A stretch of DNA of 64,000 nucleotides from IMG/VR virus record IMGVR_UViG_3300025886_000017; one strand, written 5' to 3'. Source of the DNA: a virus. Each line of letters begins with the position of its first letter. Within the stretch, counting starts at the first letter, position 1. Under the pieces are notes generated by a model that was not told where the DNA came from, did no database searches, and saw only the letters and a program-made list of their open reading frames with translations. Positions 6,482-58,568 of this stretch are shown here, piece by piece. The translations under genes and the position numbers were made by a program.

Positions 6482-7306
6482 ATGGCGAACAGAGGCTTGC
6501 AATTTGAGTGGGCGATATTGTATGAAGCTAAAAACAGACTTACCGCGGCCGAAAGAACGCCGGCAGATACTGCCTTGATGACTCTTTCTAAGCGGAATAG
6601 GGGATCAACCCAAGAGGTTCTCAAGGCCGCATCAAAAATGATAAAAGTGATCGATGACATGGTGTCGGCTCGGGAAAAGAAGAAAACTTGGCAATCATTT
6701 GTTAAGGTTTCGGGAGGCGGAGCAGAACCGAAAACCGATATTATGTTCAAGATCGGAAGTAAGAAATATAAGTGTTCGATGAAGTTTGGTGAGTCCATTC
6801 AGCTTGCATCTGGAGGACTTACAACATCCATTCAATACTTGACCGGAGTATTGAATAATCTAAAAGAAGACAGGGCAATTACGACGGGGCACGCAAAATC
6901 GTTGATACAAATTTTCGCTGAACTCGACGAGAATTATAATGTAGGAACTAAGGCCCAACCCGAAATGAAAAGACTCATGACTCAGATTAGAGATGAAGGT
7001 GGACTACAGGATAAGCTACAAAGAGCTTTGGGGTCTGCGAAAAATCCTCAACCGGCAGAAGAGTTTGCTGCATTCAAAGAAGCGGTTGTTCGGGAGTCAA
7101 TGACCGGACAAGGCACATTCGGAAAGAGGAGTGACAGGACAGCAAACTACATCTTGTCAGAAAACAAGCTAATACCTATAACAAACAAATATATAAAGAA
7201 GATAGCAGAGAACGCTAGTGTTAGAATTCGTCTGAAGGGCCGCGGAAAGAAAGATGGCGTAAGATTCAATGAGATCGTAATTTCGATGGACTCACTCATA
7301 GTATGA
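6482..7306 (+). CDS. PD-(D/E)XK restriction-endonuclease-like protein
   Basis: GLQFEWAI helix, EPKTDI...KCSMK catalytic-type motif; basic composition. Confidence 0.55.
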   Translation: MANRGLQFEWAILYEAKNRLTAAERTPADTALMTLSKRNRGSTQEVLKAASKMIKVIDDMVSAREKKKTWQSFVKVSGGGAEPKTDIMFKIGSKKYKCSMKFGESIQLASGGLTTSIQYLTGVLNNLKEDRAITTGHAKSLIQIFAELDENYNVGTKAQPEMKRLMTQIRDEGGLQDKLQRALGSAKNPQPAEEFAAFKEAVVRESMTGQGTFGKRSDRTANYILSENKLIPITNKYIKKIAENASVRIRLKGRGKKDGVRFNEIVISMDSLIV

Positions 7307-8208
7307 CCTTCAATGACTTCTTGACAGAGAACAATACGTTTCGTGGAGACGCGAACGAGATCCTACTAGGACTCCATATTGCGGGTTCGTGGGATTCTTT
7401 TGTCAATTCGTCAGAAACCAAGAAAGCACTCAAGACACGCCGCGAGGCGATCGATTCCGATGCGTATGCGGAGGAAGAGCGCAGGGCAAAGAATATGGCC
7501 GCAAAGACAAAGGAGTGGTTGGATAACTCAGGATTCGCCCCCGTCAAGTCAGTCGAGTGGGTCGGCAGAGGACCGAAGCAGGAGACTCCCGCCGACATCA
7601 TCCTGACCCTGACAGATGAAAAGCAGTTCGGCATATCTGCCAAGAGTACCCATCAAAGCAGGGATATCGTCAGTCGATCTGCTGGGATAGGAACAATCGA
7701 CACAGCTCTCAAGACTGATCTAGTGGGGATTCGGAATCGAGCAGAAGAGCGATTCATCAAGAAGCACGGGCTATCCGTTGAGCCGATTCGGCGCAAGGAA
7801 GAGATCAGGAAGAATGCTATTGTCCGACAGGAAGCTAACGAAGAGCGCACGGTAGTCCTGCGGAACATTCGCAATAAGATGTTCACCAAGTTGTCAGTAA
7901 TGCCTCAACCGAAATTGAAGCAGTTTGTTTCATCCTCTCTGTTAGGTGAGATTTCTGGTGGAATGCGATACATTCAGGTAACAGGGCACGGATCAGGAAA
8001 TGTCACAATCGTTGATCCCCGAAAAAACGACAAGCGATCGGCCATGAAGACTGGGAATATTGTTATTGCGAAGAGCGGCAATGATTCAATTACCTTCCAG
8101 TCAGGTGACATAAATATAGCACGGGTTCGCATTAAGTACGGGACTGTTCCGCTTGCATCACCCATTGAAGTTTCGGTTGACCCTTGGTCGCTGGTAGGGA
8201 GAGATTAG
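7303..8208 (+). CDS. PD-(D/E)XK-like nuclease with capsid-targeting-like N-terminus
   Basis: GDANEILL, TPADIIL...FGISAK; begins MTFNDFLTE; ATGA overlap with the upstream gene. Confidence 0.55.
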   Translation: MTFNDFLTENNTFRGDANEILLGLHIAGSWDSFVNSSETKKALKTRREAIDSDAYAEEERRAKNMAAKTKEWLDNSGFAPVKSVEWVGRGPKQETPADIILTLTDEKQFGISAKSTHQSRDIVSRSAGIGTIDTALKTDLVGIRNRAEERFIKKHGLSVEPIRRKEEIRKNAIVRQEANEERTVVLRNIRNKMFTKLSVMPQPKLKQFVSSSLLGEISGGMRYIQVTGHGSGNVTIVDPRKNDKRSAMKTGNIVIAKSGNDSITFQSGDINIARVRIKYGTVPLASPIEVSVDPWSLVGRD

Positions 8209-8209
8209 T

Positions 8210-8500
8210 ATGTCAAAAGAGTTTTTTTCGGTGATTGCTTCCATAGTTACATTATTTGGGCTGCTTTCTACATGGACTGCTGGTGTTTGGTTCATGAGTG
8301 ATCTGGAAAATCGCATTGGTCGATTGGAAGATATAGGGGAATGGCAGAAGAGCGTTGAGGTAAGACTTAAAGAATCAACTAATAAGATTAACATCAATAA
8401 CAATCGGTGGGCAGCTCACTATGGTCTATGGGGTGAGAGTATCGAGAAGAAGGGTGTAGAACGTGGCGTTAATACTGATATCCTCAGACCCGGAGAATAA
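8210..8500 (+). CDS. Hypothetical membrane-anchored coiled-coil protein
   Basis: N-terminal hydrophobic helix followed by heptad-like LENRIGRLEDI. Confidence 0.6.
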   Translation: MSKEFFSVIASIVTLFGLLSTWTAGVWFMSDLENRIGRLEDIGEWQKSVEVRLKESTNKININNNRWAAHYGLWGESIEKKGVERGVNTDILRPGE

Positions 8501-8505
8501 CTGAC

Positions 8506-10065
8506 ATGATCAGAGCAGTCATCTTCACAATAATTGTAATATTAAGCATAACTCAACTCGGATTTATCGGTCTGGGTCTTGGTGGTGGTGCCGGCGGGGG
8601 CGGCGGCGATCCAAGAATCACTGGGCTACAAACTAACATGGTAGAATTGACCAGATTTCACAATATATGGGTAGCTGAAAATGGCACTGGGACCGCGACG
8701 ACAGATCGCAACAATCTCAGAATAATGGCGACACAATGGCTTAACCTTGGGTTCTCTCAGGCCCGGCAGCTCGATCCCGGAGATTGGTCAACGGATCCAG
8801 TGCAAGGCGTATGTACTCCTGGCGGGCGGACGATCGCGCGCAACATGCCTCTCGCTTCGGCGACGATTTTGTCTTTTGCAATATATGGTGCGCTCTTAGA
8901 CATTGAGACTCCGGGTACTGGGGCGGGTGACGCATATTTTGCGGCCGCAAAAACTCACATACTTGAGTTTACTGCAATGACAGACTTTGGCCTCACTACC
9001 GGCGATGCCGAGTTTCGTGGCGCTGTCGATACTAATGGGTGCATTGAGCAAATCGCGGTCGCGGCTACCAATATAATTGAAGCAGCATGGTTGATGGAGG
9101 ATGCTGGATATACCGGAGCAGGAGAGTGGGAAACTGCTAACAGATTGACGCTTGCCAGGTGGGCACGGGACGAAGTATTCTACCTCACCAGTTGGGGAAT
9201 TCAAGCTAAAAAGAACTATCTGGGGATTTTATCATTCACAGCGCCATTAGCAATTGCAGCATATGGGGAATACCTTAGTGGGTTTAATAATGTTACAGAA
9301 TGGGCCGGTGCAACTTCAGGTATTGTTCGCACACCGACCCAGTATTTGAATGCTGCTGGATTCAGATTAATAACCTGGCTTGATAACTCAGTAGATCCAC
9401 TAGACTCGGCATGCCGCCGGGCCGGGCGGGTGTATGGTCTACAGCCATATGGTGGATTTGCAGAAGCACTCGGCGCAGATGGGTTCGACGATATCGCCTT
9501 ATCTGGGACTTTGGTCAACTGTGGTCAGCCAGATCTATCCTTCACATGCGGGCCCGGACCATCACGGGATTGCGATGATGGTGGAGGCGCGACAACCGCC
9601 GGGTCGTTAGAGTTTTTGTTACAGCAAGATACAACTACTGCACTTACACACACCTGTGAAATTTTTCGGAGAATTGATATGGATTTCGGGTCGCGATGTT
9701 TTGATCTGCGGACACATACTAATAATCCAGCATCCAATGAAGCTCTATACGACGCGATCAAATTTTCAACCACACAACTATCTGCGCCAGGCGGAAATGT
9801 AAATGGTATATTTAAGGACTATCATATTGATAATCTTAATGACGGAATGCGTTATGTGGCATCTACATATTATAACGATTACTGCATGTATAATGCATTG
9901 GACGACCAATTCACCCCGGCCGGGTTCGGTGGTGCGGTTGTCGGTGGCAACGAGTACCCATTTACCCGAATCACTCATCGTGAAGGTGTAGCATATCCGA
10001 CAAATATTCCGGCAACTCCTCAGTGGGATTGTTCGACATGGAACACCTCGAATTGGGGAACCTGA
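8506..10065 (+). CDS. Exported alpha/alpha-toroid protein, alginate/polysaccharide-lyase-like
   Basis: Hydrophobic N-terminus, GLGLGGGAGGGGG linker, helical repeats (YFAAAKTHILEF, IIEAAWLM, KNYLGILS) reminiscent of alginate lyases; 10 Cys. Confidence 0.45.
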   Translation: MIRAVIFTIIVILSITQLGFIGLGLGGGAGGGGGDPRITGLQTNMVELTRFHNIWVAENGTGTATTDRNNLRIMATQWLNLGFSQARQLDPGDWSTDPVQGVCTPGGRTIARNMPLASATILSFAIYGALLDIETPGTGAGDAYFAAAKTHILEFTAMTDFGLTTGDAEFRGAVDTNGCIEQIAVAATNIIEAAWLMEDAGYTGAGEWETANRLTLARWARDEVFYLTSWGIQAKKNYLGILSFTAPLAIAAYGEYLSGFNNVTEWAGATSGIVRTPTQYLNAAGFRLITWLDNSVDPLDSACRRAGRVYGLQPYGGFAEALGADGFDDIALSGTLVNCGQPDLSFTCGPGPSRDCDDGGGATTAGSLEFLLQQDTTTALTHTCEIFRRIDMDFGSRCFDLRTHTNNPASNEALYDAIKFSTTQLSAPGGNVNGIFKDYHIDNLNDGMRYVASTYYNDYCMYNALDDQFTPAGFGGAVVGGNEYPFTRITHREGVAYPTNIPATPQWDCSTWNTSNWGT

Positions 10066-10067
10066 AA

Positions 10068-11321
10068 ATGGAACGATTCCAATCATACCTCACTGAAGCG
10101 AAGGGGCAGAAAAACCTTCACATGACTCATCTGGAAGAGCTAATTCTTATAGATGGGATTGATGGTGGGCGAGACTCTATCAACTTCCTGCGTTCTGTTC
10201 GTGACATGCTGGCAGGCAACAGTAAGAGTAAATCTAACCTGACCGTCAAGTGGGATGGTGCGCCGGCCATATTTGCTGGTATTGACCCCGAAGACGGAAA
10301 GTTCTTCGTCGGAACAAAGGGAGTGTTCAATAAGACACCAAAGTATGTTAAGTCCAAAAAAGACCTGGCTCAGTATGGATCTGGATTACAGGACAAGTTA
10401 TGGGTCGCCTATACTGAACTTCAGAGGATCAATATCCCGAGCGGAATCGTGCTTCAGGGTGATATGCTATATGGTCCCGGTGATTTGGTGGATAAAGATT
10501 TCGACGGAGAATCCCATGTGACATTCACGCCAAATACAATCACATATGCTATTCCAAGCAACTCGGCGCTCGCAAAACGAATTCGTAAGAGTAAGCTAGG
10601 TATCATCTTCCACACCACATACAAGGGAGATTCCCTTGAGAATATGTCCGCATCGTTCGGGGCCGACGTATCAGCGATGCGAAGAGTGACAAGTGTATTT
10701 TTTGATGATGCTACATATCGCGACGTGTCGGGAACCGCTACAATGACAGCAAAGGAAACAACCGAAGTCACTCGTCATATATCGCGAGCTGGTACGGTGT
10801 TTCAGAAAATTCCAGGCGCGAAATTGAGGAAGTTTCTGGAGTTTCAGAAATCATTGACCGGATCGGTGGTGGGATCATCATTCGCCACATATACTAATAG
10901 TCTGATCCGACAGGGTAAACATCTCGACAATCCCCGAGATCATACCAGAGAATATGCGAAGTTTTTTGAGCAGTTTTGGAAAATAAAGGTAATCGGCAAA
11001 CTGAAGACTGAGAAAACGCGAAAAGAGAAAGAGCGACTCCTTAAAGAACATATGCGCGCGATTGCTGATATGGAAATTACGTTGAGACAGGTTGTGAAGT
11101 TCCAGACACATATCATAGATGCTAAGCGTATTCTTGTGAAGCAACTGAATGCAGCAACCGGGATGGCACGGACCTTGGTAAAAACGGATGACGGGTTTCG
11201 GGTCACCTCACCTGAAGGCTTTGTGGCGATCGATAATATAACGGGAAACGCGGTCAAGCTCGTTGACCGCCTGGAGTTCTCACATTTAAATTTCAATGTC
11301 GCAAAGAACTGGGATAAGTAG
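10068..11321 (+). CDS. ATP-dependent ligase-like nucleotidyltransferase (conserved T4-superfamily protein)
   Basis: Start moved to MERFQSYLTE; covalent nucleotidyltransferase motifs TVKWDG, LQGDMLY, EGFVAID, VKLV. Confidence 0.7.
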   Translation: MERFQSYLTEAKGQKNLHMTHLEELILIDGIDGGRDSINFLRSVRDMLAGNSKSKSNLTVKWDGAPAIFAGIDPEDGKFFVGTKGVFNKTPKYVKSKKDLAQYGSGLQDKLWVAYTELQRINIPSGIVLQGDMLYGPGDLVDKDFDGESHVTFTPNTITYAIPSNSALAKRIRKSKLGIIFHTTYKGDSLENMSASFGADVSAMRRVTSVFFDDATYRDVSGTATMTAKETTEVTRHISRAGTVFQKIPGAKLRKFLEFQKSLTGSVVGSSFATYTNSLIRQGKHLDNPRDHTREYAKFFEQFWKIKVIGKLKTEKTRKEKERLLKEHMRAIADMEITLRQVVKFQTHIIDAKRILVKQLNAATGMARTLVKTDDGFRVTSPEGFVAIDNITGNAVKLVDRLEFSHLNFNVAKNWDK

Positions 11322-11334
11322 AGTTATAAAAAGG

Positions 11335-11342
11335 CATAAATA
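11335..11342 (+). promoter_or_regulatory. Late promoter variant CATAAATA
   Basis: Intergenic, 9 nt before ATG 11351. Confidence 0.55.
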
Positions 11343-11350
11343 GACACACT

Positions 11351-11725
11351 ATGGGGAAAGAACTAGCAGACATACGACAGGAGCTTCAAGAAGCTCTGAC
11401 AACTGCCCAGCGCGCAAAGCGCCGGATGCAGTTTCGTCGGCTCAAGCCAAAAATCAAGCGGGCCCGCGAAATCGCAAAAAAAAGACTTGCCCCGAAGGAA
11501 AAGCTAGAGAAGCGGGCAGCAAAGCAAGCTAGAAAAACAATCGAATCGAAAATGCTCGGAGGAAAGACGAAGAATGATCTTCCGTTCGCTTCCCGAAGCG
11601 CAATAGAAAAGAAGGTAGATAAGCGTAGCGCAGTCATCAAGCGGCTTGCGAAGAAACTGTACCCGAAGGTGCGCAAGGCAGAAATGGAACGATTGAATCA
11701 ATATCGAAGCGGAGGCTCGCGATGA
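11351..11725 (+). CDS. Highly basic helical protein (putative internal head DNA-binding protein)
   Basis: K/R-rich; LQE-ALTTAQRAKRR pattern resembling a prohead protease cleavage site. Confidence 0.55.
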   Translation: MGKELADIRQELQEALTTAQRAKRRMQFRRLKPKIKRAREIAKKRLAPKEKLEKRAAKQARKTIESKMLGGKTKNDLPFASRSAIEKKVDKRSAVIKRLAKKLYPKVRKAEMERLNQYRSGGSR

Positions 11726-12576
11726 GTACCGCAGTGATGTCATTTGGAAGATTTAATCCGCCTCATACTGGGCACAAGCTTGTTGCGGATACGGTCAAAA
11801 AGGTAGCCAAGAAAGAGAAGGGAACTCCTCTGGTATATCTGAGTCACACTCAGAACCAGAAGAAAGATCCATTGACATATGAGCAGAAGGTGAAGTTTGC
11901 GAAGGCATTCTTCGGTAATGTCGTACAGAAGAGCAAAGCAAAGACGGTTATTGAAATTGCGCAAGAGTTGGACAAGAAGTATGACAATCTTGTAATGGTA
12001 GTTGGAGCAGATCGCCTCAGTGAGTTTAAGCGACTGCTAAACAATTATAACGGAAAGGAATACTCCTTCGACAGTATCAAAATCGTATCTGCTGGGGCCC
12101 GTGACCCGGATGCAGATGATGTGACGGGAATGTCAGCATCAAAGATGCGAAAACTCGCTGCGGAAGGCGACTTTGCTGAATTCAAGAAGGGTGTACCGAA
12201 GGCAACGATGGCTCGGGCACTATATGACGCAACCCGGCAGGGGCTTAGTGTCAATGAACGGTTTGAACAGGACGAGATATTCAGTCTGATCGAGCAGTGT
12301 GAGCGAATGAAAGATTGGGATGACCTTACCGAAGATATTGAAAATAACAGAAGATTTAACTCGCTTCTGAGATTCGGGCTCGTCGATGATCGTGATATAC
12401 CTATTGCGAGACGAGCGTTTTCTAATATGTCTCGGGCAAAAGTAGATTACACACTCCGTGATATTGTGTTTGAGGTCACGGATAGGTTGTTTGAATATAT
12501 GCTGGAGGATGACCTCCTGTACAACAGGCTGCTTATGTTAGTGCAGCGAGATAAGTTCTTCGATAGGAACGATTAG
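11722..12576 (+). CDS. HIGH-superfamily nucleotidyltransferase (cytidylyl-/NMN adenylyltransferase-like)
   Basis: FGRFNPPHTGH (HxGH), MVVGADR, GMSASKMR. Confidence 0.88.
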   Translation: MSTAVMSFGRFNPPHTGHKLVADTVKKVAKKEKGTPLVYLSHTQNQKKDPLTYEQKVKFAKAFFGNVVQKSKAKTVIEIAQELDKKYDNLVMVVGADRLSEFKRLLNNYNGKEYSFDSIKIVSAGARDPDADDVTGMSASKMRKLAAEGDFAEFKKGVPKATMARALYDATRQGLSVNERFEQDEIFSLIEQCERMKDWDDLTEDIENNRRFNSLLRFGLVDDRDIPIARRAFSNMSRAKVDYTLRDIVFEVTDRLFEYMLEDDLLYNRLLMLVQRDKFFDRND

Positions 12577-12586
12577 GAGAATATTA

Positions 12587-13060
12587 ATGTTTGGAGAAAA
12601 AAAGGTATCCGACTCGATGCTCGCCGCTGTTCGTGGTGTTATGTCAGCAGAACAGAAGGACTCGGAAGGTGGAACACTTGAGACTGGTGATTCAATTCGC
12701 GTTTCTGAGGGCGATCATGCAGGAATGACAGGAACGATCACTGGGTTCAACACATCAGGCCGATCTCAGGTTCAGCTCAATCGTGGTCGTCATGTGGAGA
12801 TTTCCAATGAAATGATCATCAACGAATCAAAAAAACTTGATGCCGTGGGTGATGAAGACGATGATATCGATAATGATGGTGATTCCGATGAATCGGATGA
12901 TTATCTTAGAAATCGCCGTAAGAAGATCAAGAAGAATATGAAGGAAGAGGACTGTCCTTGCTGTGATGGTGAGTGCAAATGCAAAGATGACTGTCCCAAT
13001 TGTGATTGTGGCGACGAAGAATCAAACGAATCATATAAGAAGAAATTGGCCGTCAAATAA
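12587..13060 (+). CDS. Acidic putative head protein with KOW/SH3-like domain and Cys-rich tail
   Basis: TGDSIRVSEGDHAGMTGTI (KOW-like); DEDDDIDNDGDSDESDDYLRNRRKKI; CPCCDGECKCKDDCPNCDC. Confidence 0.6.
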   Translation: MFGEKKVSDSMLAAVRGVMSAEQKDSEGGTLETGDSIRVSEGDHAGMTGTITGFNTSGRSQVQLNRGRHVEISNEMIINESKKLDAVGDEDDDIDNDGDSDESDDYLRNRRKKIKKNMKEEDCPCCDGECKCKDDCPNCDCGDEESNESYKKKLAVK

Positions 13061-13111
13061 ACGCGGTGATCTTACATACACATAAATCAACTCTTTTCAA
13101 GGAGAATCAAA

Positions 13112-13774
13112 ATGTCTAACTGGACAGGAAACACTGTACCCAACTGGTACAAAGATGTAGGTGGCGCCAGAATCGATGCCAAGCCAAATCACTCAAACGA
13201 CGCTGGAAGTCTCTTTCAGACAGATCGCGGTTGGGAGCGTGAGATTCGCTATACCGACCAGCACGGTAACGAGCGGGCGAAGCGATATGTTGTAGTTGCT
13301 GATCGTGAGTTGCAGACAGACACGGCCGCTGTCAACATTACGGATGTTCGCATAGCTAACGCTACCAGTTACACCACAACAGAACCAACTGTTGCCGGAT
13401 CTACTGCTGGAGACTCGTTTGATATTGAGATGACATTCAATCAGCCTGTGGCTCTTTCGGGAGTGGTTACACTAGCATTGAATGGTGGAACAACTGATCC
13501 GCTGACGGCAGTGTATAAGTCGGGAAATTTGACAAATAAAATTGTGTTCACTGCTCCCACGAATGCTGAAGCCACTACAGAAGAGCTAATGATAAGCACA
13601 ACAAAGACCGGAGCAGGAACCATCGTTGCTTGGGATACCAGCACCGTCGCCGGATCAGTTCACGCATCAGGCAAAAGTGTTGTTGCTTCAGCAAATTTAG
13701 CACTATATGGAGCATCGGTTGATACTATTTCTGCTTCTGATAATACTGGGCTTGCTAACACCGTAATCGAGTAA
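13112..13774 (+). CDS. Putative virion structural/decoration protein with Ig-like C-terminus
   Basis: Strong AAGGAG SD; RGWE..RYTDQHGNERAK motif then T/S/A-rich beta sandwich (TFNQPV, YKSGNLTNKIVF). Confidence 0.55.
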   Translation: MSNWTGNTVPNWYKDVGGARIDAKPNHSNDAGSLFQTDRGWEREIRYTDQHGNERAKRYVVVADRELQTDTAAVNITDVRIANATSYTTTEPTVAGSTAGDSFDIEMTFNQPVALSGVVTLALNGGTTDPLTAVYKSGNLTNKIVFTAPTNAEATTEELMISTTKTGAGTIVAWDTSTVAGSVHASGKSVVASANLALYGASVDTISASDNTGLANTVIE

Positions 13775-13780
13775 AGGGGA

Positions 13781-14251
13781 ATGAACATGCGCGGACTTAT
13801 TACAATGCTACTCGTGATGATGATTGCTGGGCCTGCGTTTGCGGAGACCACCAAGCGAGTACCAACTAACAAGTGTTCCAGTCCTGTGGATACCTCGGAT
13901 GCTTTGCCTATTGGAGAGACAACCGATGATGTGTATTGGGACATTGGTTATACGTCGAATGCTGAGGCTTCACCTATTTCCATTTTCTTTGATCCAGATA
14001 TCACTGTAGCTCCGACCACAGCAGGAGAGACATTAACAATTTCTTCCTGCATGATAGCGGAAGACGCGACTACTTGCTTTCCTCTCTTGTGGGACTCTAA
14101 TGCTGATGGAACACCGGACACGAATATTCTGACTGGCACATCAGCAGCAACATCAGGGCTTTCGAGTATTAGTGGATTCCCATACCTTCGGGTTGAGGAA
14201 ACTGGTACACCGTCAACCAATGCACGTTATGTGATTTGTAGGAGCTTTTGA
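13781..14251 (+). CDS. Exported small beta-sandwich protein
   Basis: Classic Sec signal MNMRGLITMLLVMMIAGPAFA|ETT; 4 Cys. Confidence 0.7.
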   Translation: MNMRGLITMLLVMMIAGPAFAETTKRVPTNKCSSPVDTSDALPIGETTDDVYWDIGYTSNAEASPISIFFDPDITVAPTTAGETLTISSCMIAEDATTCFPLLWDSNADGTPDTNILTGTSAATSGLSSISGFPYLRVEETGTPSTNARYVICRSF

Positions 14252-14272
14252 TACAGTATACATACCTATATT

Positions 14273-19615: not shown

Positions 19616-19651
19616 TAGTTACACTCAATCTGGAAAGTAATGGGGACGAAT

Positions 19652-20005
19652 ATGAAAAATTTTGACGACCTAAGAGAAGATATGGGTGTTGGTGGTGGCG
19701 GAATCGCCGGAACCGCTGAGGCTGGTGATGATCCGCCGATGCGAAAGAAAAAACAAGCGAAACTAATTCGGCGGAATAGATTTATGCAAAACGAAGTGTT
19801 CGAAATTTCCGCGTCCACATACAATACCATCATGAGACCAAAGATCAGAACAGAACGTTTTAGTTCTATTGTAGGTGTAGATGAGGTTGGTGAAGCCATT
19901 AGAGATTATGCGAAATGCAATCCGGGTAAAGGAATTCTTGTCCAGTGTGAAAATACAAAACATATGACATGGTTAAGACTCCCCCGAATCAAGAGGAATA
20001 AATAG
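19652..20005 (+). CDS. Putative internal head protein
   Basis: Start moved to MKNFDDLRE (GGGG SD); GVGGGGIAG..DDPPMRKKK pattern. Confidence 0.6.
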   Translation: MKNFDDLREDMGVGGGGIAGTAEAGDDPPMRKKKQAKLIRRNRFMQNEVFEISASTYNTIMRPKIRTERFSSIVGVDEVGEAIRDYAKCNPGKGILVQCENTKHMTWLRLPRIKRNK

Positions 20006-30523: not shown

Positions 30524-31346
30524 TGCCAATGTACAGGTGAAGAATGAGGCTCTTCTGTTGGATCAAGTTTTACCTGAATGGGATTCGTATCCTATTGATC
30601 ATTTCGTATTCTACGATGATGGATCATTTGATGGTACTGCTGATGTTATTCAGAGCAATCTAGAAAAGAATCGCTACACTATTCTCAGTGACTCCATCCA
30701 TACTAAATTTCACGAAGCAAGAAATCGTTCTGCTATGTTGGAATACTCCCGCGATAATGGTGCGAATGTTATTGTCTCTATTGACGCAGATGAACTACTA
30801 TCTGACCCATTCATTGATCAGTGGGACGGGATTATGTCCCAATCACTTGATCATAAACTGATGACCTTTCAGTGGAATGTGGTGGGTGACTTGGGGCATT
30901 ATCGATGTGACCCAGCATACTATTCCAACTATCGCGACTTTATCTTTCCGGTGGAACATACTGGTAAGTTCGATCTATCTCTCGGCCGTTACCATTCCCC
31001 ACGAACACCTAACATCAATGCGCCTGTCGGAACACTGCATGATGAATCCGCATTCGTCCACCTACAAGCACTCAATGTGAGGTTTTATGCCCTCAAGCAA
31101 CTTTGGTACAAGACTTTCGAGTATCTCCACTATGATAAGTCAGTCGATCAGATTAACGCTGCTTATGATCCTGTGGTCAATGGTCTTGATTTTTGCTCTC
31201 GTGATATGCCTTCCCATATTCTTTCTTTGGATACGTTCGATTCGGGTGTATTCAGTCTCATCGAAAAAGAGCGAGGATACGTTGACTATATATTAGAGTA
31301 CAGTGTCCCTGAATTGATTACGTTTGGTGAGGAGTATTTGAGATGA
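30513..31346 (+). CDS. Glycosyltransferase, GT-A (GT2-like)
   Basis: Probable TTG start at 30513; VKNE, YDDGSFDGT, HEARNRS, SIDADE. Confidence 0.82.
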   Translation: MRVDANVQVKNEALLLDQVLPEWDSYPIDHFVFYDDGSFDGTADVIQSNLEKNRYTILSDSIHTKFHEARNRSAMLEYSRDNGANVIVSIDADELLSDPFIDQWDGIMSQSLDHKLMTFQWNVVGDLGHYRCDPAYYSNYRDFIFPVEHTGKFDLSLGRYHSPRTPNINAPVGTLHDESAFVHLQALNVRFYALKQLWYKTFEYLHYDKSVDQINAAYDPVVNGLDFCSRDMPSHILSLDTFDSGVFSLIEKERGYVDYILEYSVPELITFGEEYLR

Positions 31347-31963
31347 GATTTTCTAAGCTAGGCGATCTATATGAGAATGAGTTGTTTGCCCCAGCCGAAC
31401 GCCGATATTGGTTTTTCCAGTTGCTTGTCTGGTTGGACGTGTTGGCACCTGAAATCCCAAAGTGTGTTATTGAGACAGGAACTAACCTCGGGTATGGTGC
31501 GTACACTTGGTCGATGTTTTTTGATGAGGTTCATACCGTAGAACTGTCAGAGCATCAATACAATAAAGCAAAGGATGTTTACGGTCTCGTCAACAATATC
31601 ACGTTCTATAACGACACCTCCGATTCATTTCTTGCGGAAATTCTTCCGACGAGAACTGATCAATGTATCATCTTTCTTGACGCGCATGGATCTGGTGGTG
31701 ATACCACATTCGATGATAGAGATGGTAGATTTGGTAGTCCGATTCTACGCGAACTCCAAATGATAAAGGAACATAGCACTAGGAATGATCATATTATATT
31801 GATTGATTATTTGGAGGATTGCGTCAAATTGCCCGGCTATCCAAACAAGGATGAGATTCGCGAAGCATTGAAGGATATCAATCCAGAATATCACATTGAA
31901 CTCGATTTTCCCTCTCATCTTATGATGTCAGTCGGTGGAGTCGGGATGTCGATTGTACTATGA
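31343..31963 (+). CDS. Class I SAM-dependent methyltransferase
   Basis: VIETGTNLGYG, HTVELS, IIFLDAH, IILID. Confidence 0.82.
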   Translation: MRFSKLGDLYENELFAPAERRYWFFQLLVWLDVLAPEIPKCVIETGTNLGYGAYTWSMFFDEVHTVELSEHQYNKAKDVYGLVNNITFYNDTSDSFLAEILPTRTDQCIIFLDAHGSGGDTTFDDRDGRFGSPILRELQMIKEHSTRNDHIILIDYLEDCVKLPGYPNKDEIREALKDINPEYHIELDFPSHLMMSVGGVGMSIVL

Positions 31964-37540: not shown

Positions 37541-38104
37541 ATGGTGCCGAATTTTACTGAGAATTTACCGGAATTATTTGAAAGGATCAATAAGGCCGAA
37601 ACAGAAGATGAGAAGGTCACTCTTCTTCGTGGATATAAACAGCAGACTACTTTACATACAATTTTACAGTCTGCGTATGGAAATCTAACGTGGGCATTAC
37701 CGGTAGGGAGACCCCCGTTCCGTGAAAGCGAATTGCCATACGGATTCGGTGGACTATTGGATCGGGAGATCCGCAAATTTGTGTATTTCTTTAATGAGCA
37801 TCCGAGGAAGATAACCAAAACCACTCAGCGAGAAAGTGTTTTCATTCAGCTTCTTGAGAATCTCCATCCATCTGAATCCGAAATTGTTCTACAAGCCAAA
37901 GAGGGTGATATAATCGGAGTATCGCATGATATTGTATATAAGGCATTTCCCGTGCTAGTTCCGCCAGCTCCAGCCATTGCCGCTGTTGAGGAGAGCAGTA
38001 TCATACAGGAACCGGTCGATGAAGTAAAGACTCAGGTGAAGAAGAAGGCTCCCAAAAAACGAACTCCCAAAAAACGAACTCCCAAAAAGAAGAAGGCAAA
38101 CTAA
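37541..38104 (+). CDS. Conserved T4-superfamily hypothetical protein with basic KKRTP tail
   Basis: LPVGRPP, RESVFIQLLENLHPSE; C-terminal KKKAPKKRTPKKRTPKKKK. Confidence 0.7.
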   Translation: MVPNFTENLPELFERINKAETEDEKVTLLRGYKQQTTLHTILQSAYGNLTWALPVGRPPFRESELPYGFGGLLDREIRKFVYFFNEHPRKITKTTQRESVFIQLLENLHPSESEIVLQAKEGDIIGVSHDIVYKAFPVLVPPAPAIAAVEESSIIQEPVDEVKTQVKKKAPKKRTPKKRTPKKKKAN

Positions 38105-48738: not shown

Positions 48739-48739
48739 A

Positions 48740-49606: not shown

Positions 49607-49644
49607 AGGTATAGTCAGCAGATTCAAATTTGAATCTTGAATCG

Positions 49645-49684: not shown

Positions 49685-49688
49685 ACGC

Positions 49689-49696
49689 ACTAAATA
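49689..49696 (+). promoter_or_regulatory. Late promoter variant ACTAAATA
   Basis: Directly after the terminator, 6 nt before ATG 49702. Confidence 0.65.
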
Positions 49697-49701
49697 GTTG
49701 T

Positions 49702-50142: not shown

Positions 50143-50146
50143 ATAA

Positions 50147-50773: not shown

Positions 50774-50776
50774 CGA

Positions 50777-51466: not shown

Positions 51467-51479
51467 GACGGAGTATAAT

Positions 51480-52184: not shown

Positions 52185-52186
52185 TC

Positions 52187-52351
52187 ATGGCATACCAAAG
52201 TACAGTGAACTACTATAGACTGAATTTTGCCATGATTCAGATACATAAGTATAGTCTAACCGAGATCGAGAATATGGTTCCATTTGAGAGAGACTTGTAC
52301 GTTGAACTTCTGCTGCAACATTTGGAGCAACAGAAAGAAAATAATCAATAG
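52187..52351 (+). CDS. gp51: Baseplate hub assembly catalyst gp51 (54 aa, below cutoff)
   Basis: Hand translation ...NYYRLNFAMIQIHKYSLTEIENMVPFERDLYVELL; follows gp26. Confidence 0.88.
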   Translation: MAYQSTVNYYRLNFAMIQIHKYSLTEIENMVPFERDLYVELLLQHLEQQKENNQ

Positions 52352-52370
52352 CAGCAAAGAGGATGATTAA

Positions 52371-53843
52371 ATGGAAGATAATAAATCCAACCGGGCTCTA
52401 GGCCTTGCTGACAAAGCAGCCACCGGAACGGCCAGGATGGCCAGGGTGGCACAAGGCTGGGGCGAGTTCGGCGCTGAGAAGATTGGTGTTGGGGTCAACA
52501 AGGCCGCAGCTCGGTTTGGTGAAACTTCGGGAGATATTAGTATGCCGATTATAACCGGCGCCGCAGAGAGGGCGGCAGGTTTTGCGACTGGATTCGTCGG
52601 TAAGGCCTACGAAATGGCGATGGGCGGTGGAGATAAGATGATAGATGTGGTCAAGGGATTGAGGAAGGTCAAGGATAGCACAGATGATGTAATAGAAAAT
52701 ACGGAAGAGACGAACGAAACCCTAAATGCCATGCAGAAGATCATGGAAAATGACAGTCGGGCTGCGAGAGAAGTTGCTAGAGAAAAGAAGGGGAGGAAGG
52801 GTGCGCATCTTAGTCTTGTCAAGAATAGTGATGTAGATGGTGATGATGAATCGAAAGGACTGTTCGGCTGGCTCGCGGGCCTGAGCGCGCTTTTGCTCAC
52901 TAACTTCGGAACCCTCAGCGAAATTGTGGAAGGGATGTTTCGTAATTTGGGTACAAGACTTTCAAAGGCATTAACGCCGTTTCTTGATGATACTCTGAGA
53001 CCCTTTTTCGATAAGATCGGAAAGAGACTAACTCTGCTTATTGATGATACTCTGAGATTTTTCGATAAGATCGGAAAGAGACTAGCTCCGTTTATTGATG
53101 AATGGATCACGCCAATTCGCGAACGAATGGCGAAAGGGATATCTGGTGTATTTGAAACTATCATTAAGAAGTTTCCAATATTGGCAAAGTTTTTTACAGC
53201 CGCGGCACCCAAGGCAGCCCCGGCGGCCGCCCCGGCGCTGCTGAAGGCGGTCCCGAAGATCGCCCCGGCTGCCACAAAGGCAGCCGCGCCTGGTTTCTTC
53301 AGTAAAGCGTTAGGTGTGGTAAAGAATGTGGTCCCAAAGGTTTCAGGCCTGGGCGGCATGGCGTTGAGGGGGTCGATGACTGTTCTCAAAAAAATTCCCG
53401 TCATTGGACCCGTAATTGAAGCCTTTTTTCTGCGCGGTAAGTATAACGATCTAAAAGCAGCCAAGGACAGCGGCTCCATCACCGAAGAGCAGTTCAAGAA
53501 TATGATGATTGTTGAGATTATGTCTGCTATTGGTTCTATGGTCGGGGCAGGCGCAGGCGCCGTCGCGGGCGGCGGGGTTGCCTCGATACCGCTTGCGGTC
53601 GGAGGTTCGATTGCCGCGTCGAGTGCCGCGAGAGCGATGGCGATGAAGGTAACAGGTCTGACTAGCGAGGATTTTGATAAAGTTGCTACAGCAAGCGACA
53701 AAGCGGGTAGCGACGGTGGGAATACTACAATCATTGATGCTTCAGTAACTACCGATCAATCAACGACCACGACAGATAGTGGTTCTGGTCCGATTCATAC
53801 TCCAGCACCCCCGGTTGCTGGCGTCACCCACGAAGCGGCATAG
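52371..53843 (+). CDS. Baseplate hub / tape-measure-like protein (gp29-like)
   Basis: Ala/Gly-rich helical protein with KKIPVIG; position between gp51 and gp48. Confidence 0.6.
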   Translation: MEDNKSNRALGLADKAATGTARMARVAQGWGEFGAEKIGVGVNKAAARFGETSGDISMPIITGAAERAAGFATGFVGKAYEMAMGGGDKMIDVVKGLRKVKDSTDDVIENTEETNETLNAMQKIMENDSRAAREVAREKKGRKGAHLSLVKNSDVDGDDESKGLFGWLAGLSALLLTNFGTLSEIVEGMFRNLGTRLSKALTPFLDDTLRPFFDKIGKRLTLLIDDTLRFFDKIGKRLAPFIDEWITPIRERMAKGISGVFETIIKKFPILAKFFTAAAPKAAPAAAPALLKAVPKIAPAATKAAAPGFFSKALGVVKNVVPKVSGLGGMALRGSMTVLKKIPVIGPVIEAFFLRGKYNDLKAAKDSGSITEEQFKNMMIVEIMSAIGSMVGAGAGAVAGGGVASIPLAVGGSIAASSAARAMAMKVTGLTSEDFDKVATASDKAGSDGGNTTIIDASVTTDQSTTTTDSGSGPIHTPAPPVAGVTHEAA

Positions 53844-53856
53844 GGAGTAGATACAA

Positions 53857-55059
53857 ATGGCAGAAGATGACGAACCCGAAATTTCTTTGGCGCAGCAGAC
53901 TCTAAATGCGTCCGCCGATGTCGCGGAGGCGGCAGGAGCATTTGCCGGGGACACGATCGATTTGGCCTCTGAGCAGATCGGAGCAGAACGGGATGCGTTA
54001 AATGCGCTATATCTAGATAAATATAAAAACTTTTTCCTTCAGTATCCTGCGAATGTAGATAATGCGGTCGAAGAGCGTCATTGGATTCGATTTGACGTTC
54101 AGGAAATCAAAGGCCAGACGCTTGAAACCCCCGACACCAAGGATGATGATAAGCTAAAGGAACCATTCGATTCAAAGTTTGGTGGTGCGTTTGGAAAGGC
54201 AATAGAATCGGGAGTAGAAAGGGCAGTCGGAGGAGTCAAGTCTGCGATCAATGTTCCTGGCCAGCTCATCACGAGGACGGCCAATGAATTTCTAAACGAA
54301 ATCCCGGTGGCTGGTGGATTAGCAAAACAGTTTCTTTCTGGTTCAAATGAGTCAAAAGCTAGGGGGCTTGGTTCTATTCTACTTTATGCTCCCTTCAGTC
54401 GAACTGACACTGCTGGATTTCAATGGCAGACAAACCAATCAACTGGATTTATAGGGCAGAAATTTTCAAGCGGGGTTAAAGGAATATCAAAAACAGTTCG
54501 TGATGTAGCGAATGCCAGCGCCTCGGCATTGCGCGGAGACGCGGCGGCACAGGGGTCATTCGCAGCGGCCGTAGGCACTTACGGCGCATTGTTTGGTGCA
54601 GATGAGATTAGCAAGGCTACTGGAGGTTTCGCTCCTAAAGTCCGCGATCAATTGCTTAAATCCGAAGGCGTGGCGTTCAATAATCACGTTGAGTCATTCT
54701 TTTCGGATGTACAAATGAGAAGCTTTGAATTTACTTTCCAACTATCACCTCGTACTCCAAGTGAAGCGCGCGAGATTCAACAGATTATTAAGATGTTTAA
54801 GTACGCTGGGCATCCTGCGCAATATGAAGGTCTATCTGGCGTCTTTTTTGCGTATCCGCAGGTATTTGACATTGAAATATACAACCAAGACCAGACTCAT
54901 AAAATTGGCACATCAGCACTCACCGGAATGTCAACTACATATGGTGGAGACACGCGCAATAACACATTTTACGACAATCATCCGGTTCAGGTCAATCTAT
55001 CATTACGGTTCACTGAGCTTGAAATTCTTGACAAGGACAAGGTTGATAAGGGATTCTAA
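53857..55059 (+). CDS. gp48: Baseplate tail tube cap gp48
   Basis: MRSFEFTFQLSPRTPSEA..I..II..FKY..HP, YPQVFDI, LSLRFTELEIL. Confidence 0.88.
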   Translation: MAEDDEPEISLAQQTLNASADVAEAAGAFAGDTIDLASEQIGAERDALNALYLDKYKNFFLQYPANVDNAVEERHWIRFDVQEIKGQTLETPDTKDDDKLKEPFDSKFGGAFGKAIESGVERAVGGVKSAINVPGQLITRTANEFLNEIPVAGGLAKQFLSGSNESKARGLGSILLYAPFSRTDTAGFQWQTNQSTGFIGQKFSSGVKGISKTVRDVANASASALRGDAAAQGSFAAAVGTYGALFGADEISKATGGFAPKVRDQLLKSEGVAFNNHVESFFSDVQMRSFEFTFQLSPRTPSEAREIQQIIKMFKYAGHPAQYEGLSGVFFAYPQVFDIEIYNQDQTHKIGTSALTGMSTTYGGDTRNNTFYDNHPVQVNLSLRFTELEILDKDKVDKGF

Positions 55060-56349
55060 ATGCCAAAACAATTCTTTAACTCACTACCACTCGTCGGATA
55101 TGACATCAACAATGATGGTAATATTAAGACCGCCACGAATATTCTGACACGAATAGCAAGGAAGGCAAGTCTTGCGATAGAAGGTTCTATATTCTATAAC
55201 TATCCAATGCAAGATGGAGACACAGTTGAGATCATCGCAGATAAATATTACGGGAATCCAAAGTACCACTGGGTAGTAATGCTCATCAACAATGCGCATC
55301 ATAACGTATATGATTTTCCATTGAACACAAGAACATTTGATCGATATATCGTGGACAAGTATGGATCATATGAGGAAGCGGTAGGCATTACAAAGACACT
55401 ATCAGACGCTAACACATATAGCTCGTTTGGTGTATATTCAGAAACTCACAATGAAATTCAAACAACGAGTAACAACCCTCTGCTTGTAAGTGGTACAATT
55501 CCAGCCGGAAGCACCACCACGATCAAAGCTACAGCCGCGAGCGATCCATTCTCTACATTGGGAGTAGGGAACATGGTTGAATTGTTTGTGCCTAGTGCAT
55601 GGCATGATGTCAATAATAATACATCAGAGATGCTGGGATACTCACATCCCGCAGAGATTCTTGCAAAGTCTACGCGAAGTGATGGTACATATGCCATCTC
55701 AACTAACATGGACTCAAGACGGTATCCTGCGTTTGATTGGCAAGAAGATGGGTTTCTTAAAACAGAATCCGGTGTCACGAGCCAAGTGACATCACCGGCA
55801 ACAGCAAATCAAACACACATTTGGTTGTCCACCGATACAGAAGGCGGTTTATATGCCACGAATGGATTCATTACATTCACTGAAACTCCGGGTGAAGGCG
55901 TTGATTCAGCGTCTCTTGTCGGTAACAATTTTCCAATCGAATCATATGATGAGACATATAATATCGTAACGCTCGGTGAGAATTATAAGCTCCCAGAGGA
56001 ATTCAAAACCGGTTGGGCATATACGATAACATATGGTGGATACCACATCACGTCCGGTGATGTTGGTGATGTTCGTATTGAGGGCGATGACATTACTCTA
56101 CGCAGCGCTGTCCATCACTTTGAGATGGATGTGTACAGCGATGGGGGGACTCTGCTTCTGAATGATCATCAAATCACAAAGAATGAGTATGTGAATAGTA
56201 GTGTCGGTACTGCCGCAAATAAGCGCATAGTGAATAACTATGATTTTGAACTTGATGATGATAATAGTAAGCGCAATATAATTCTATTGAGATTGGAACT
56301 TCTGCCGGAATTTGTGAAACAATTCACCAATCTGCTTAGCGGGAAATAA
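55060..56349 (+). CDS. gp53: Baseplate wedge gp53 with internal insertion
   Basis: FFNSLP, GDTVEIIADKYYGNPKYHWVVMLIN, NYDFE..DN..KRNI.LL. Confidence 0.85.
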   Translation: MPKQFFNSLPLVGYDINNDGNIKTATNILTRIARKASLAIEGSIFYNYPMQDGDTVEIIADKYYGNPKYHWVVMLINNAHHNVYDFPLNTRTFDRYIVDKYGSYEEAVGITKTLSDANTYSSFGVYSETHNEIQTTSNNPLLVSGTIPAGSTTTIKATAASDPFSTLGVGNMVELFVPSAWHDVNNNTSEMLGYSHPAEILAKSTRSDGTYAISTNMDSRRYPAFDWQEDGFLKTESGVTSQVTSPATANQTHIWLSTDTEGGLYATNGFITFTETPGEGVDSASLVGNNFPIESYDETYNIVTLGENYKLPEEFKTGWAYTITYGGYHITSGDVGDVRIEGDDITLRSAVHHFEMDVYSDGGTLLLNDHQITKNEYVNSSVGTAANKRIVNNYDFELDDDNSKRNIILLRLELLPEFVKQFTNLLSGK

Positions 56350-56351
56350 TC

Positions 56352-57686
56352 ATGCAAACTGACAATGATAATATGGTAAGATCCGGTGATGGTGTTGTTG
56401 AAAGTTGCTTGGTATTCTCTTCTGTTAATGCTAATCCATTCGATCTTACTGCCCTTTGGATGACCATTTCGATTTATGAGTCTATTGGGACGGATTATCA
56501 TCGCCTTGAGATGAGCTTCACTGATAATCAGAATTTGATTGAAAAGATTCCTATCATTGGCAACGAGAAGATTATCATTCGATACAAGACACAAGGGGCC
56601 AAGGAAACCAGAATTTTTGCCGGAAGAATTGTGTCTATCCCTGTTAGGACAGAGATTAATCAATCAACACGGGCATTCGTGATTGAAGCGATTACTGAAG
56701 AGTTCGTTTATAACCAGAAGATTAAGTTTTCAAAGTCTTATAATAATATGCTCATCAGTGATATGGTGAATGACATCTTTGATCAATATATTAATCCTGT
56801 TTCGGGTAAAGAGATTGCAATCGTTCCGACGATAGAACAATCTTCTAAGATCATCCCAAACTACAGCCCAATGCGCGCAATTAACTGGTTGACAAAATGG
56901 GCTCGGTCACCGGATTATCGTGAGGGTGCTAGTTATGTGTTCTACCAGAACACCAATAATTTCTTCTTCGGGCCCGTTGAGTATTTGATGGATCCCAGTC
57001 GGACACAAGGCTCATCTATACCAAATTATACTCATTCAAAGAACGTAATGACAGGGGATGCTAAATCAAAGGATATTAGTGCAGGGCTGTATAATATTAT
57101 AAACTTCTCGACCCGGACTATAGATCATATGGAGATGATTAGAGAAGGTGCCATGGCATCTTCTATCCTGTCCCATGACTTAGTTCTTGGAACCCGAACT
57201 AAGACCACATATGACTATTTTGAGTCGTTCGATGATATGATACATTTAGAACAGAATCCTATATCAAATGATGTTAGGATGGGGCAATATTCCGATAGCC
57301 GAGTTTTACTTAATCCCCAACACTACTCGGCTTTTGGCGGAGAACTAAATAGTAACGAAAATCCAAAGACAGCACTATCTCGTTTTAGTCAGTTGAGTCA
57401 TCTTAGGGGAAGTGGATTGGATATTCTCGTTCCGGGTGATAGTAATAGAACTATTGGTGAAGTTGTCAATGTGGAGCTTCCTTCCGTGGGCCCAAACGCA
57501 AAAGAAGATACGTTAGGTGACAGTGATAAATACCTATCCAGTAGGTATCTTGTTTGGGGAGTTCGACATGAAATGACACGAGTCCCATCCGGGTCCGTTT
57601 CATATTATTGTCATATGAAGTTATTTCGAGATTCATCTCGAACGGAAATACCAGCACAGGTGGCGTTTCCGTTCGGACAATCATAG
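56352..57686 (+). CDS. Baseplate hub protein (gp27-like)
   Basis: ISIYESI, PIIGNEKI, SKSY, IIPNYSPMRAI, VPGDS.RTIGEVV, GRY-like SRYLVWGVRH. Confidence 0.72.
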   Translation: MQTDNDNMVRSGDGVVESCLVFSSVNANPFDLTALWMTISIYESIGTDYHRLEMSFTDNQNLIEKIPIIGNEKIIIRYKTQGAKETRIFAGRIVSIPVRTEINQSTRAFVIEAITEEFVYNQKIKFSKSYNNMLISDMVNDIFDQYINPVSGKEIAIVPTIEQSSKIIPNYSPMRAINWLTKWARSPDYREGASYVFYQNTNNFFFGPVEYLMDPSRTQGSSIPNYTHSKNVMTGDAKSKDISAGLYNIINFSTRTIDHMEMIREGAMASSILSHDLVLGTRTKTTYDYFESFDDMIHLEQNPISNDVRMGQYSDSRVLLNPQHYSAFGGELNSNENPKTALSRFSQLSHLRGSGLDILVPGDSNRTIGEVVNVELPSVGPNAKEDTLGDSDKYLSSRYLVWGVRHEMTRVPSGSVSYYCHMKLFRDSSRTEIPAQVAFPFGQS

Positions 57687-57704
57687 CAGAATTAGGAGAA
57701 CCCC

Positions 57705-58568
57705 ATGCTAACATTCAAAGAACACCAACAGCTCGACGAGAAGGCTATTCTTTTCCAGCAAGGACAGAATTACGGTCAGATTGTATTTTTGGCAGGCGGC
57801 GCTGCGTCTGGTAAGGGATTTGCTCTGGATAACTTTATGCAGCCTGATAAGTTCAAGGTGCGTGATGTGGATGAATGGAAGAAAGCTCTTATGAAGCTAG
57901 ATGCGATTGCTGTTGATGTGGACAATAATTATAAGCAGAAGGGGATCGACACTAAAGCAAAGTTCGGTGTTCGTGCGTCGGAACTCAATCTGAAGAATGA
58001 AGAGGATGTGTTCCGACTTCACGATATGGTGGATCAGCTCGGATGGAAGGATAAGACGCTGGATCTTCTTCTTGGCGGCGCGAAGAATGCAGATCGTCTC
58101 CCCAATATTTTATTTGATATCACAATGAAGAATACGAATCAGGTGAGCAAAACCCTTCCGAAGCTGCTCTCACTTGGATATAAGCCAGAAAATATTCACC
58201 TTGTCTGGGTTCTAACAAACTTCAATGTTGCTCTTGATCGAAATAGATCCCGCCCCCGAAAGGTGCCAGAGTACATCGTTAAGCAAACACATACAGGCGC
58301 TGCTACCACAATGATGGAAATTGTGAAAGGAAATATCCCGCGCGGAATGGATGGGCGCATTACCGTTGTGCTGAATAATAACGAAGAGACGATATTCTAT
58401 CTCGATAAAGATGGCGAAAAAATGAACCTTGTTAAGAGTTTTACGAGTATTGATCTGAAGCGAGAAGGAAAGCGGTTTGAGAAGGATGGGTATGTGGATA
58501 ATCAGATTCATAAGTGGGTGATGAAGAACGCCCCGAGGGAAGTCGCTAAGGATATTAGGAACCGATAA
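57705..58568 (+). CDS. P-loop kinase-like protein (AAA_33/zeta-toxin-like) with capsid-targeting-like N-terminus
   Basis: VFLAGGAASGKG Walker A, ILFDIT, ALDRNRSRPRKVP lid; begins MLTFKEHQQLDE. Confidence 0.8.
   Translation: MLTFKEHQQLDEKAILFQQGQNYGQIVFLAGGAASGKGFALDNFMQPDKFKVRDVDEWKKALMKLDAIAVDVDNNYKQKGIDTKAKFGVRASELNLKNEEDVFRLHDMVDQLGWKDKTLDLLLGGAKNADRLPNILFDITMKNTNQVSKTLPKLLSLGYKPENIHLVWVLTNFNVALDRNRSRPRKVPEYIVKQTHTGAATTMMEIVKGNIPRGMDGRITVVLNNNEETIFYLDKDGEKMNLVKSFTSIDLKREGKRFEKDGYVDNQIHKWVMKNAPREVAKDIRNR

Follow-up and report, generated by a model that had tools for sequence, protein, structure and literature searches.

Does a T4-like phage of the sea carry ready-made enzymes in its head and inject them with its DNA? 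The question is raised by the 64,000 nucleotides of IMG/VR virus record IMGVR_UViG_3300025886_000017 that we analysed (the window), which come from a divergent, uncultured T4-like marine myovirus and have all their genes on the plus strand. An earlier, sequence-only reading of the window had claimed that four dispersed genes begin with peptides resembling the capsid targeting sequence (CTS) of T4 internal proteins, and that a nuclease, a ligase-like enzyme and a kinase are packaged and ejected with the DNA. The four open reading frames (ORFs) and their N-termini are present as quoted. The four proteins and their N-terminal peptides (tags) are:

7303..8208, plus strand: candidate cargo 1, a 301-amino-acid (aa) protein, weakly nuclease-like, with a D...S-x-K motif and weak fold matches
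7303..7329, plus strand: tag MTFNDFLTE of the 301-aa PD-(D/E)xK-like protein, in a register one residue shorter than that of T4
10068..11321, plus strand: candidate cargo 2, a DUF6267 protein, putatively a ligase-like nucleotidyltransferase (KWDG); PF19782, E 7e-99
10068..10097, plus strand: tag MERFQSYLTE of the DUF6267 protein, in the same register as T4 MKTYQEFIAE
19652..20005, plus strand: candidate cargo 3, a 117-aa small basic protein; phrog_3286, weak
19652..19678, plus strand: degenerate tag MKNFDDLRE of the 117-aa protein, below the strict matrix threshold
57705..58568, plus strand: candidate cargo 4, a Zeta-toxin-type P-loop kinase, between a gp27-like gene and a gp5 OB-fold gene
57705..57740, plus strand: degenerate, longer tag MLTFKEHQQLDE of the kinase-like protein, with F4 and L10-D-E12 present and H7

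From sequence comparisons we think it probable that these N-terminal peptides are capsid targeting sequences of the T4 type, that is, short detachable propeptides. Our confidence is slightly higher when the claim is confined to 7303 and 10068, and falls just short of even when it takes in all four proteins. In the mechanism that we propose, the hydrophobic residues at positions 4 and 7 would dock the protein on the scaffolding core of the assembling prohead, a gp21-type prohead protease would then cut at the [LI]-x-E end, and the mature protein would be kept in the head and exit with the DNA at infection. The predicted cargo is the PD-(D/E)xK-like protein (7303) and the ligase-like DUF6267 protein (10068) and, less certainly, the 19652 and 57705 proteins; for these four we infer targeting, packaging, cleavage, ejection and early action. 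The phage probably injects ready-made enzymes with its DNA, because same-tagged proteins of related cyanophages have been found in purified particles.

Two gene starts carry the tag far beyond chance

The tags of 7303 and 10068 follow one strict motif, M-x(1-2)-F-x-x-[FY]-L-T-E, and are far beyond chance. A position matrix was derived from N-terminal sequences of DUF6267 homologues, all on other contigs and with no T4 sequence among them, and applied to the first residues of all window genes. A rigid 10-mer matrix missed 7303, which is shifted in register by one residue, and was replaced by an 8-residue core, x-F-x-x-[FY]-[LI]-x-E, with sliding offsets. The best score in the window was that of 7303 (19.5 bits), whose protein is unrelated to DUF6267; 10068 scored 13.9 bits. 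Judged from internal windows of the same proteins, chance would give about 0.02 of 85 gene starts at 12 bits. Both start codons are in plausible settings: that of 7303 overlaps the preceding gene by ATGA and was judged reasonable, and the ATG of 10068 follows the stop codon of the gene before it by 3 nt and has GGGGAA upstream.

The tag is kept among homologues and, in the structural models, lies outside the folded domain. Most DUF6267 homologues (n = 120) begin M-x-[ST]-F-x-x-[FY]-[LI]-x-E, and 8 of the 11 homologues in the 7303 family keep the tag, one member beginning directly at the domain without it. The Pfam DUF6267 domain starts at residue 16 of the 10068 protein, past the tag, and AlphaFold 2 gives predicted local distance difference test (pLDDT) values below 50 to residues 1-17 of this protein and residues 1-14 of the 7303 protein. 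As modelled, both proteins thus have a short N-terminal extension of the kind expected of a CTS propeptide.

The conservation might lie in the DNA instead, as a gene-start box kept by recombination or by the needs of translation initiation, the peptide having no role. T-even internal-protein genes have been proposed to shuffle via conserved 5' ends (Repoila 1994, as cited in PMC9026906), and the sequence-only reading had noted another, identical 19-nt gene-start box in the window. This explanation is largely refuted and we consider it highly improbable. The L-T-E codons are TTG ACA GAG in 7303 and CTC ACT GAA in 10068; all three differ, and the upstream regions are unrelated. Conservation therefore acts on the peptide and not on a DNA box, and it is seen at the amino-acid level across homologues that are 30-50% identical.

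The tag matches the T4 targeting sequence and the gp23 cleavage site

IPII and IPIII of T4 both begin MKTYQEFIAEA, as read from the T4 record. According to the summary of Mullaney and Black (1996) in PMC9026906, the first 10 residues of the T4 CTS suffice, residues 4 and 7 being the main determinants of targeting and residues 8 and 10 those of processing; the same source gives T4 propeptides as 10 to 19 residues long. The conserved positions of the marine tag (4, 7, 8 and 10) are these targeting and processing positions. At the targeting positions the 10068 protein has F4 and Y7 and the 7303 protein F3 and F6 (register -1), all hydrophobic or aromatic. The processing positions ([LI] at 8, Glu at 10) are represented by L-T-E in 7303 and 10068, L-R-E in 19652 and L-D-E in 57705.

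The DUF6267-trained matrix also recognises the major capsid protein. In T4 gp23 it gave a single strong match, FGSFLTE/AE at residues 58-65 (14.4 bits; the slash marks the cleavage position), which we take to be the maturation site where gp21 removes the first 65 residues. In gp23 of Methylophilales phage Melnitz (Kyanoviridae), which can be cultivated on OM43 strain H5P1 and is the closest isolate by way of the DUF6267 protein (about 50% identity), the top match was AFLSE/AAP at the equivalent place, where gp23 of S-SM1 reads ILTE/T and that of S-CREM2 LLTE/A. The matrix finds gp23 cleavage sites, and therefore the tag ends in an apparent phage head-protease site.

The likeness to the gp21-removed T4 CTS (IPI, IPII, IPIII and Alt; PMC9026906, PMC3012670) is thus one of place, composition and use. 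The window tags, of 9-12 residues, stand at the extreme N-terminus and end in [LI]-x-E, at 8-10 in the T4 register; hydrophobic or aromatic residues occupy 4 and 7 in 10068 and, shifted by one, in 7303, and do so partly in 19652 and at 4 alone in 57705; the tag is portable between unrelated proteins; the phage is T4-like, with a gp21 homologue in its relatives; and the predicted cargo includes enzymes, as T4 Alt is an enzyme. There are also differences. The marine consensus F-x-x-[FY]-L-T-E is nearer to the T4 gp23 site FLTE/A than to Y-Q-E-F-I-A-E, and the proteins tagged are unlike those of T4 (DUF6267, Zeta-like kinase and PD-(D/E)xK-like proteins here; NMNAT-like transferase, S-adenosylmethionine (SAM) hydrolase and APH kinase in relatives). 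The marine tags are known from sequence, whereas cleavage and targeting in T4 were shown experimentally. Head and ejection proteins of giant phages (phiKZ, 201phi2-1, SPN3US; PMC9026906, PMC5694885) are likewise cut C-terminal to Glu by a T4-gp21-like protease; theirs is an [S/A/G]-x-E motif with long propeptides and an inner body, in contrast to the short, T4-style hydrophobic tag found here.

Tagged proteins of related phages are found in virions

Purified virions of cyanophage S-SM1 contained 41 proteins (Sullivan et al. 2010, PMC3037559, Table S8), among them the cytidylyltransferase T4-GC190 (25 peptide counts) and its neighbours GC1453, GC1454, GC1455 and GC425. The genes for this cluster lie directly after gp41, like the window cluster at 6482-14251. 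GC190 begins MKKFSAFLNE, and no other annotated start in the entire S-SM1 genome has a strong tag. The adjoining DUF6267 gene (T4-GC71) begins MCDSTLSC and is untagged, and its product is absent from the virion proteins detected. (T4-GC15 was considered as the DUF6267 cluster and rejected; it is the gp27-like gene upstream of gp5.) The same pattern was found in S-SZBM1 (PMC9146016): the sole virion enzyme, cytidylyltransferase _140, begins MRFRQFIIE (17.4 bits), and the adjoining, untagged DUF6267 protein (_141) is absent from the virion protein list. All DUF6267 orthologues covered by virion proteomics (S-SM1, S-SZBM1) are thus untagged and undetected, which fits the model and is no positive test of it.

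Tag and virion detection are associated in S-CREM2. Its virions contained 52 of 221 proteins, and the authors name four enzymes that they consider probably encapsidated (PMC10665884, Table 3). Three of these four are tagged at residue 1 (p 2e-4): the SAM hydrolase gp6 (MKDFDSFLEE), the APH-like kinase gp14 ((V)KRFDAFLTEE) and the cytidylyltransferase gp154 (MKNFSSFLTEA, 18.9 bits). The fourth, the Cas9-like gp12, has LRFASFMAEA at residues 17-26 and not at residue 1. Eight annotated starts score at least 5 bits, five of which belong to virion proteins (gp6, gp13, gp14, gp136 and gp154), and every tagged protein of at least 78 aa (5/5) is among the virion proteins. Fisher p values for tag versus virion were 0.019 for all genes and 0.0017 for non-structural proteins. 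The kinase of S-CRM01, detected in virions as cited in PMC10665884, begins MISFDQFLSE. Internal tags at about residues 17-26 behind a Trp-rich leader were seen both in S-CREM2 (L010:7704-10313, minus strand; KPLRFASFMAEA) and in S-CRM01 (L015:8400-8951; KLSLDSFIKEA), and may be a longer propeptide class or reflect a mis-called start.

These associations bear on another explanation, in which the shared peptide has nothing to do with the capsid and serves as a stability signal or as a docking or regulatory helix, whose common partner could be a multi-enzyme repair complex, the ribosome or the replisome, and in which virion detection of tagged relatives reflects abundance or co-purification. Most of the tagged families are enzymes of nucleic acids or nucleotides and could work together, AlphaFold 2 draws a short helix at residues 3-9, and the S-CREM2 authors admit that CsCl preparations may be contaminated by highly expressed proteins (PMC10665884). 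We nevertheless regard it as quite improbable: the conserved positions match those that direct targeting and processing in T4, and also the gp23 cleavage site; small proteins without an enzyme domain bear the tag too; and in S-SM1 and S-SZBM1 the tagged protein was detected and its untagged neighbour from the same operon was not.

Points against capsid targeting, and the two degenerate tags

Several observations weigh against the capsid-targeting reading. The virion proteomes checked contain no tagged DUF6267, Zeta-like kinase or 7303-family protein, and three tagged S-CREM2 ORFs of 55-61 aa were undetected in virions. Several virion proteins from this cluster, GC1453 and GC1454 of S-SM1, are untagged, and proteins must therefore have other ways into the particle as well. 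Virion mass spectrometry, as the authors of PMC10665884 noted, does not distinguish proteins inside the head from abundant ones that co-purify, and the published virion searches were not set to find semi-tryptic N-termini. Head genes gp20 to gp23, including the gp21 protease, gp22 and gp23, lie outside the 64-kb window, and no gp21 was found on the 28.6-kb IMG/VR contig overlapping the window end (L007); gp21 protease is encoded by Melnitz (PF03420, 109.7 bits), S-SM1, S-CREM2 and S-SZBM1.

The remaining points concern 19652 and 57705, the weaker part of the reading. The sequence-only reading had suggested a motif scan; run on the 85 gene starts of the window, the strict matrix was passed by 7303 and 10068 and failed by 19652 and 57705, so that the likeness to the T4 CTS stands for the first two and is degenerate in the others. 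A pattern loose enough to include both would be expected about 1.2 times among 85 starts, and on their own the two tags are not significant. That of 57705 keeps F4, with His at position 7 and a spacing of 12 residues; that of 19652 (F4, L7) has L-R-E shifted by one residue. Their candidacy comes from the family consensus. Two other window N-termini, MRFSKLGDLYE (31343-31963) and MVPNFTENLPE (37541-38104), also match a loose form of the tag, with scores at chance level.

It may then be that only 7303 and 10068 have a working tag, and that 19652 and 57705 have decayed tags or chance look-alikes and act in the cytoplasm, the kinase perhaps as an assembly factor of the baseplate operon. This explanation is favoured by the matrix failure, by the chance expectation of the loose pattern, by the His and the spacing of 57705, by the alternative in-frame ATG of 19652 at 19640 and by the position of 57705 between gp27-like and gp5 genes. 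The families argue the other way, for in them the consensus tag is 30 to 1000 times as frequent as in internal windows. At least 6 bits were reached by 26 of 81 distinct N-termini of the kinase family (internal rate 0.0002), with starts such as MLKFRQYLEEK, MLSFQNYITEQ and MLTFSQFLAEQ, and by 22 of 150 N-termini of the small-protein family (internal rate 0.005), with starts such as MKSFKEIRSLTE, MKTFKEFITEE and MKKFNTFYEE. Homologues of 19652 begin at its MK, with GGGGA 7-11 nt upstream in the window, and the start of 57705 is preceded by AGGAG. Among Klebsiella T4-like homologues of 57705, that of KP27 starts MKSFKQFTESTLTE and phi1_146010 starts MKSFKDFTSLDE, the latter with the same architecture as MLTFKEHQQLDE; and T4 propeptides themselves span 10 to 19 residues, as given in PMC9026906. 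Because their families carry the consensus tag, we retained both as candidates for capsid targeting, and consider it rather unlikely that the working tags are confined to 7303 and 10068.

Both families have further features. Zeta-like kinases with a CTS-like start occur widely among T4-like phages of enterobacteria and Aeromonas (215 phage records; KP27 L018:2501-3340), and one record of the family is annotated "head morphogenesis protein". The Klebsiella homologues have CAATAAATA about 30 nt upstream, and a literature search for a Slopekvirus virion proteome covering the kinase homologue found none that was usable. In the 19652 family a second conserved block follows straight after the tag (window 19679-19780), APVN-x-[VI]G-x-G-x-IAG-T ... 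PPV ... KKK. It resembles the mature gp23 N-terminus just past the cleavage site (Melnitz E/AAPTNSTGSAV, L017:4718-6001; T4 ATNIAAGQTSGAV, L009:2246-3811) and may be a mimic of the capsid protein's N-arm.

Enzyme activities suggested for the cargo

The enzyme labels of the cargo proteins are leads and not assignments. For the kinase, the 57705 protein passes the Pfam cut-off for PF06414 (28.6 bits versus 22.3), with the C-terminal half of the profile only, matches phrog_5268 (E 9e-48) and has a Walker A motif, GGAASGKG, at residues 31-38. The ligase-like label comes from the KxDG motif of DUF6267, in which K61, D63 and G64 (K61-W-D63-G64) are invariant, and from weak Foldseek matches of the 10068 protein to the adenylation domains of DNA ligase I and RNA ligase (probability 0.75-0.85, E 0.09-0.2, template modelling (TM) score about 0.2). 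PDB profile searches with DUF6267 and the kinase family gave no match. The nuclease-like label is weak. The 7303 protein has no match in Pfam or PHROG; D98...S112-x-K114 is invariant in its family (11 sequences), and its top Foldseek match is the restriction endonuclease MspI (E 0.044, weak), followed by Cas4-family proteins and Holliday-junction resolvases. The family of the small 19652 protein has 228 representatives at E <= 0.001, and its domain is also found C-terminally in larger proteins. A search (tblastn) of this protein against phage isolates gave no match, and a suspected link to S-SM1 GC426 was dropped when the comparison gave no support.

The tag is portable between protein families

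The tag was found on at least eight unrelated families (window, Melnitz, S-SM1, S-CREM2, S-CRM01, S-SZBM1 and KP27), and the same family is found with and without it (DUF6267, cytidylyltransferase, the 7303 family and GC1453). Four consecutive post-gp41 genes of Melnitz are tagged, MQGFKTFLSE, (M)INFSKYITE, MKKFSELTSE and MKKFSEIIEA, the first being the homologue of window 6482 and the last the cytidylyltransferase. S-CRM01 has tags on the kinase g130, on g129 and on the transferase g127, and none on DUF6267 (g132). The corresponding part of the window holds these further features:

6146..6153, plus strand: late-promoter core TATAAATA, just 3' of gp41 and upstream of the 6482-14251 cluster
6482..7306, plus strand: untagged orthologue of S-SM1 virion protein T4-GC1453 (38% identity, E 1e-52)
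11351..11725, plus strand: small basic protein with a possible weak tag, MGKELADIRQELQE; hydrophobic positions and L-x-E aligned by eye only
11722..12576, plus strand: cytidylyl/adenylyl-transferase (HxGH), untagged, 39% identity to S-SM1 GC190

This is the neighbourhood in which cyanophages encode virion-associated "non-structural" proteins (S-SM1 GC190, PMC3037559; S-CREM2 gp6, gp14 and gp154, PMC10665884; S-SZBM1_140, PMC9146016). The detected cyanophage proteins bear the same tag, and window 6482 and 11722 are orthologous to two cyanophage virion proteins; those three papers report detection and no loading signal. Unlike in the cyanophages, the cytidylyltransferase of the window is untagged and the neighbouring DUF6267 protein and nuclease-like paralogue are tagged.

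The 6482-7306 and 7303-8208 genes are adjacent and look like distant paralogues, with a common PKTDI/PADII ... S-x-K motif. In this pair 7303 alone is tagged in the window; in Melnitz the 6482 homologue is the tagged one. The transferase at 11722 begins at the catalytic FGRFNPP motif, its residue 6 aligning to residue 83 of GC190, and so is without the tag and the linker of about 80 residues of its virion-detected orthologues. The 11351 ORF, whose Melnitz counterpart begins MKKFSELTSELIE, overlaps the transferase gene by ATGA (window 11351-12576). The window transferase has the look of a tagged enzyme that has been split or remodelled.

The phage and the setting of the tagged genes

The window has the T4-type replication genes for gp43 DNA polymerase, UvsX, gp41 helicase, gp61 primase, gp59 and gp32, and also gp4, gp2, gp26, gp48, a gp27-like gene, a split gp5 and gp25. 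Its polymerase is at most 48% identical to cyanomyovirus polymerases, and a search among phage records for DNA nearly identical to the window gave no match. The T4 late-promoter core TATAAATA has four matches in the window (273, 6146, 50597 and 62035), all on the plus strand, three of them directly upstream of genes, including gp25 and the post-gp41 cluster. At least four matches were also found in 13 of 100 shuffles, and as candidate T4-type late promoters these sites are suggestive only. The setting of the tagged genes is late-gene-like, with TATAAATA at 6146 and 57705 within the run of baseplate genes, and counts in favour of capsid targeting.

What an injected enzyme kit would mean

Marine T4-like phages are among the most abundant viruses in the sea. 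The mechanism discussed here is known from the T4 CTS, and is extended to marine T4-likes and to new enzyme cargo; our literature search found no paper linking the CTS to marine T4-like phages or to the enzymes in their virions. We see an even chance that the principle is general, that is, that marine T4-likes (Kyanoviridae and relatives on heterotrophs) load a swappable enzyme kit through one tag, M-x-x-F-x-x-[FY]-[LI]-x-E. The proposed kit, to which we give the same even weight, would comprise ligase-like DUF6267, Zeta-type kinase, PD-(D/E)xK proteins, NMNAT-like transferase, SAM hydrolase, APH kinase and Cas9-like nuclease.

Cyanophage papers have repeatedly found enzymes in virions (cytidylyltransferases, kinases, SAM hydrolase) without deciding between cargo and contamination. 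A loading tag of the T4 type on those enzymes would offer both a mechanism and a simple predictor. If the reading is right, the DNA of this phage arrives together with a ligase-like enzyme and a nuclease-like protein, and perhaps also with a kinase, and injected enzymes could counter host defences before phage gene expression, as T4 IPI* and Alt do. An enzyme that gained the tag would pass from an expressed to an injected mode, and one that lost it would pass back; the presence and absence of the tag within the DUF6267, cytidylyltransferase and GC1453 families would be a natural experiment. The arsenal that uncultured phages inject ahead of gene expression would then be readable directly from metagenomes.

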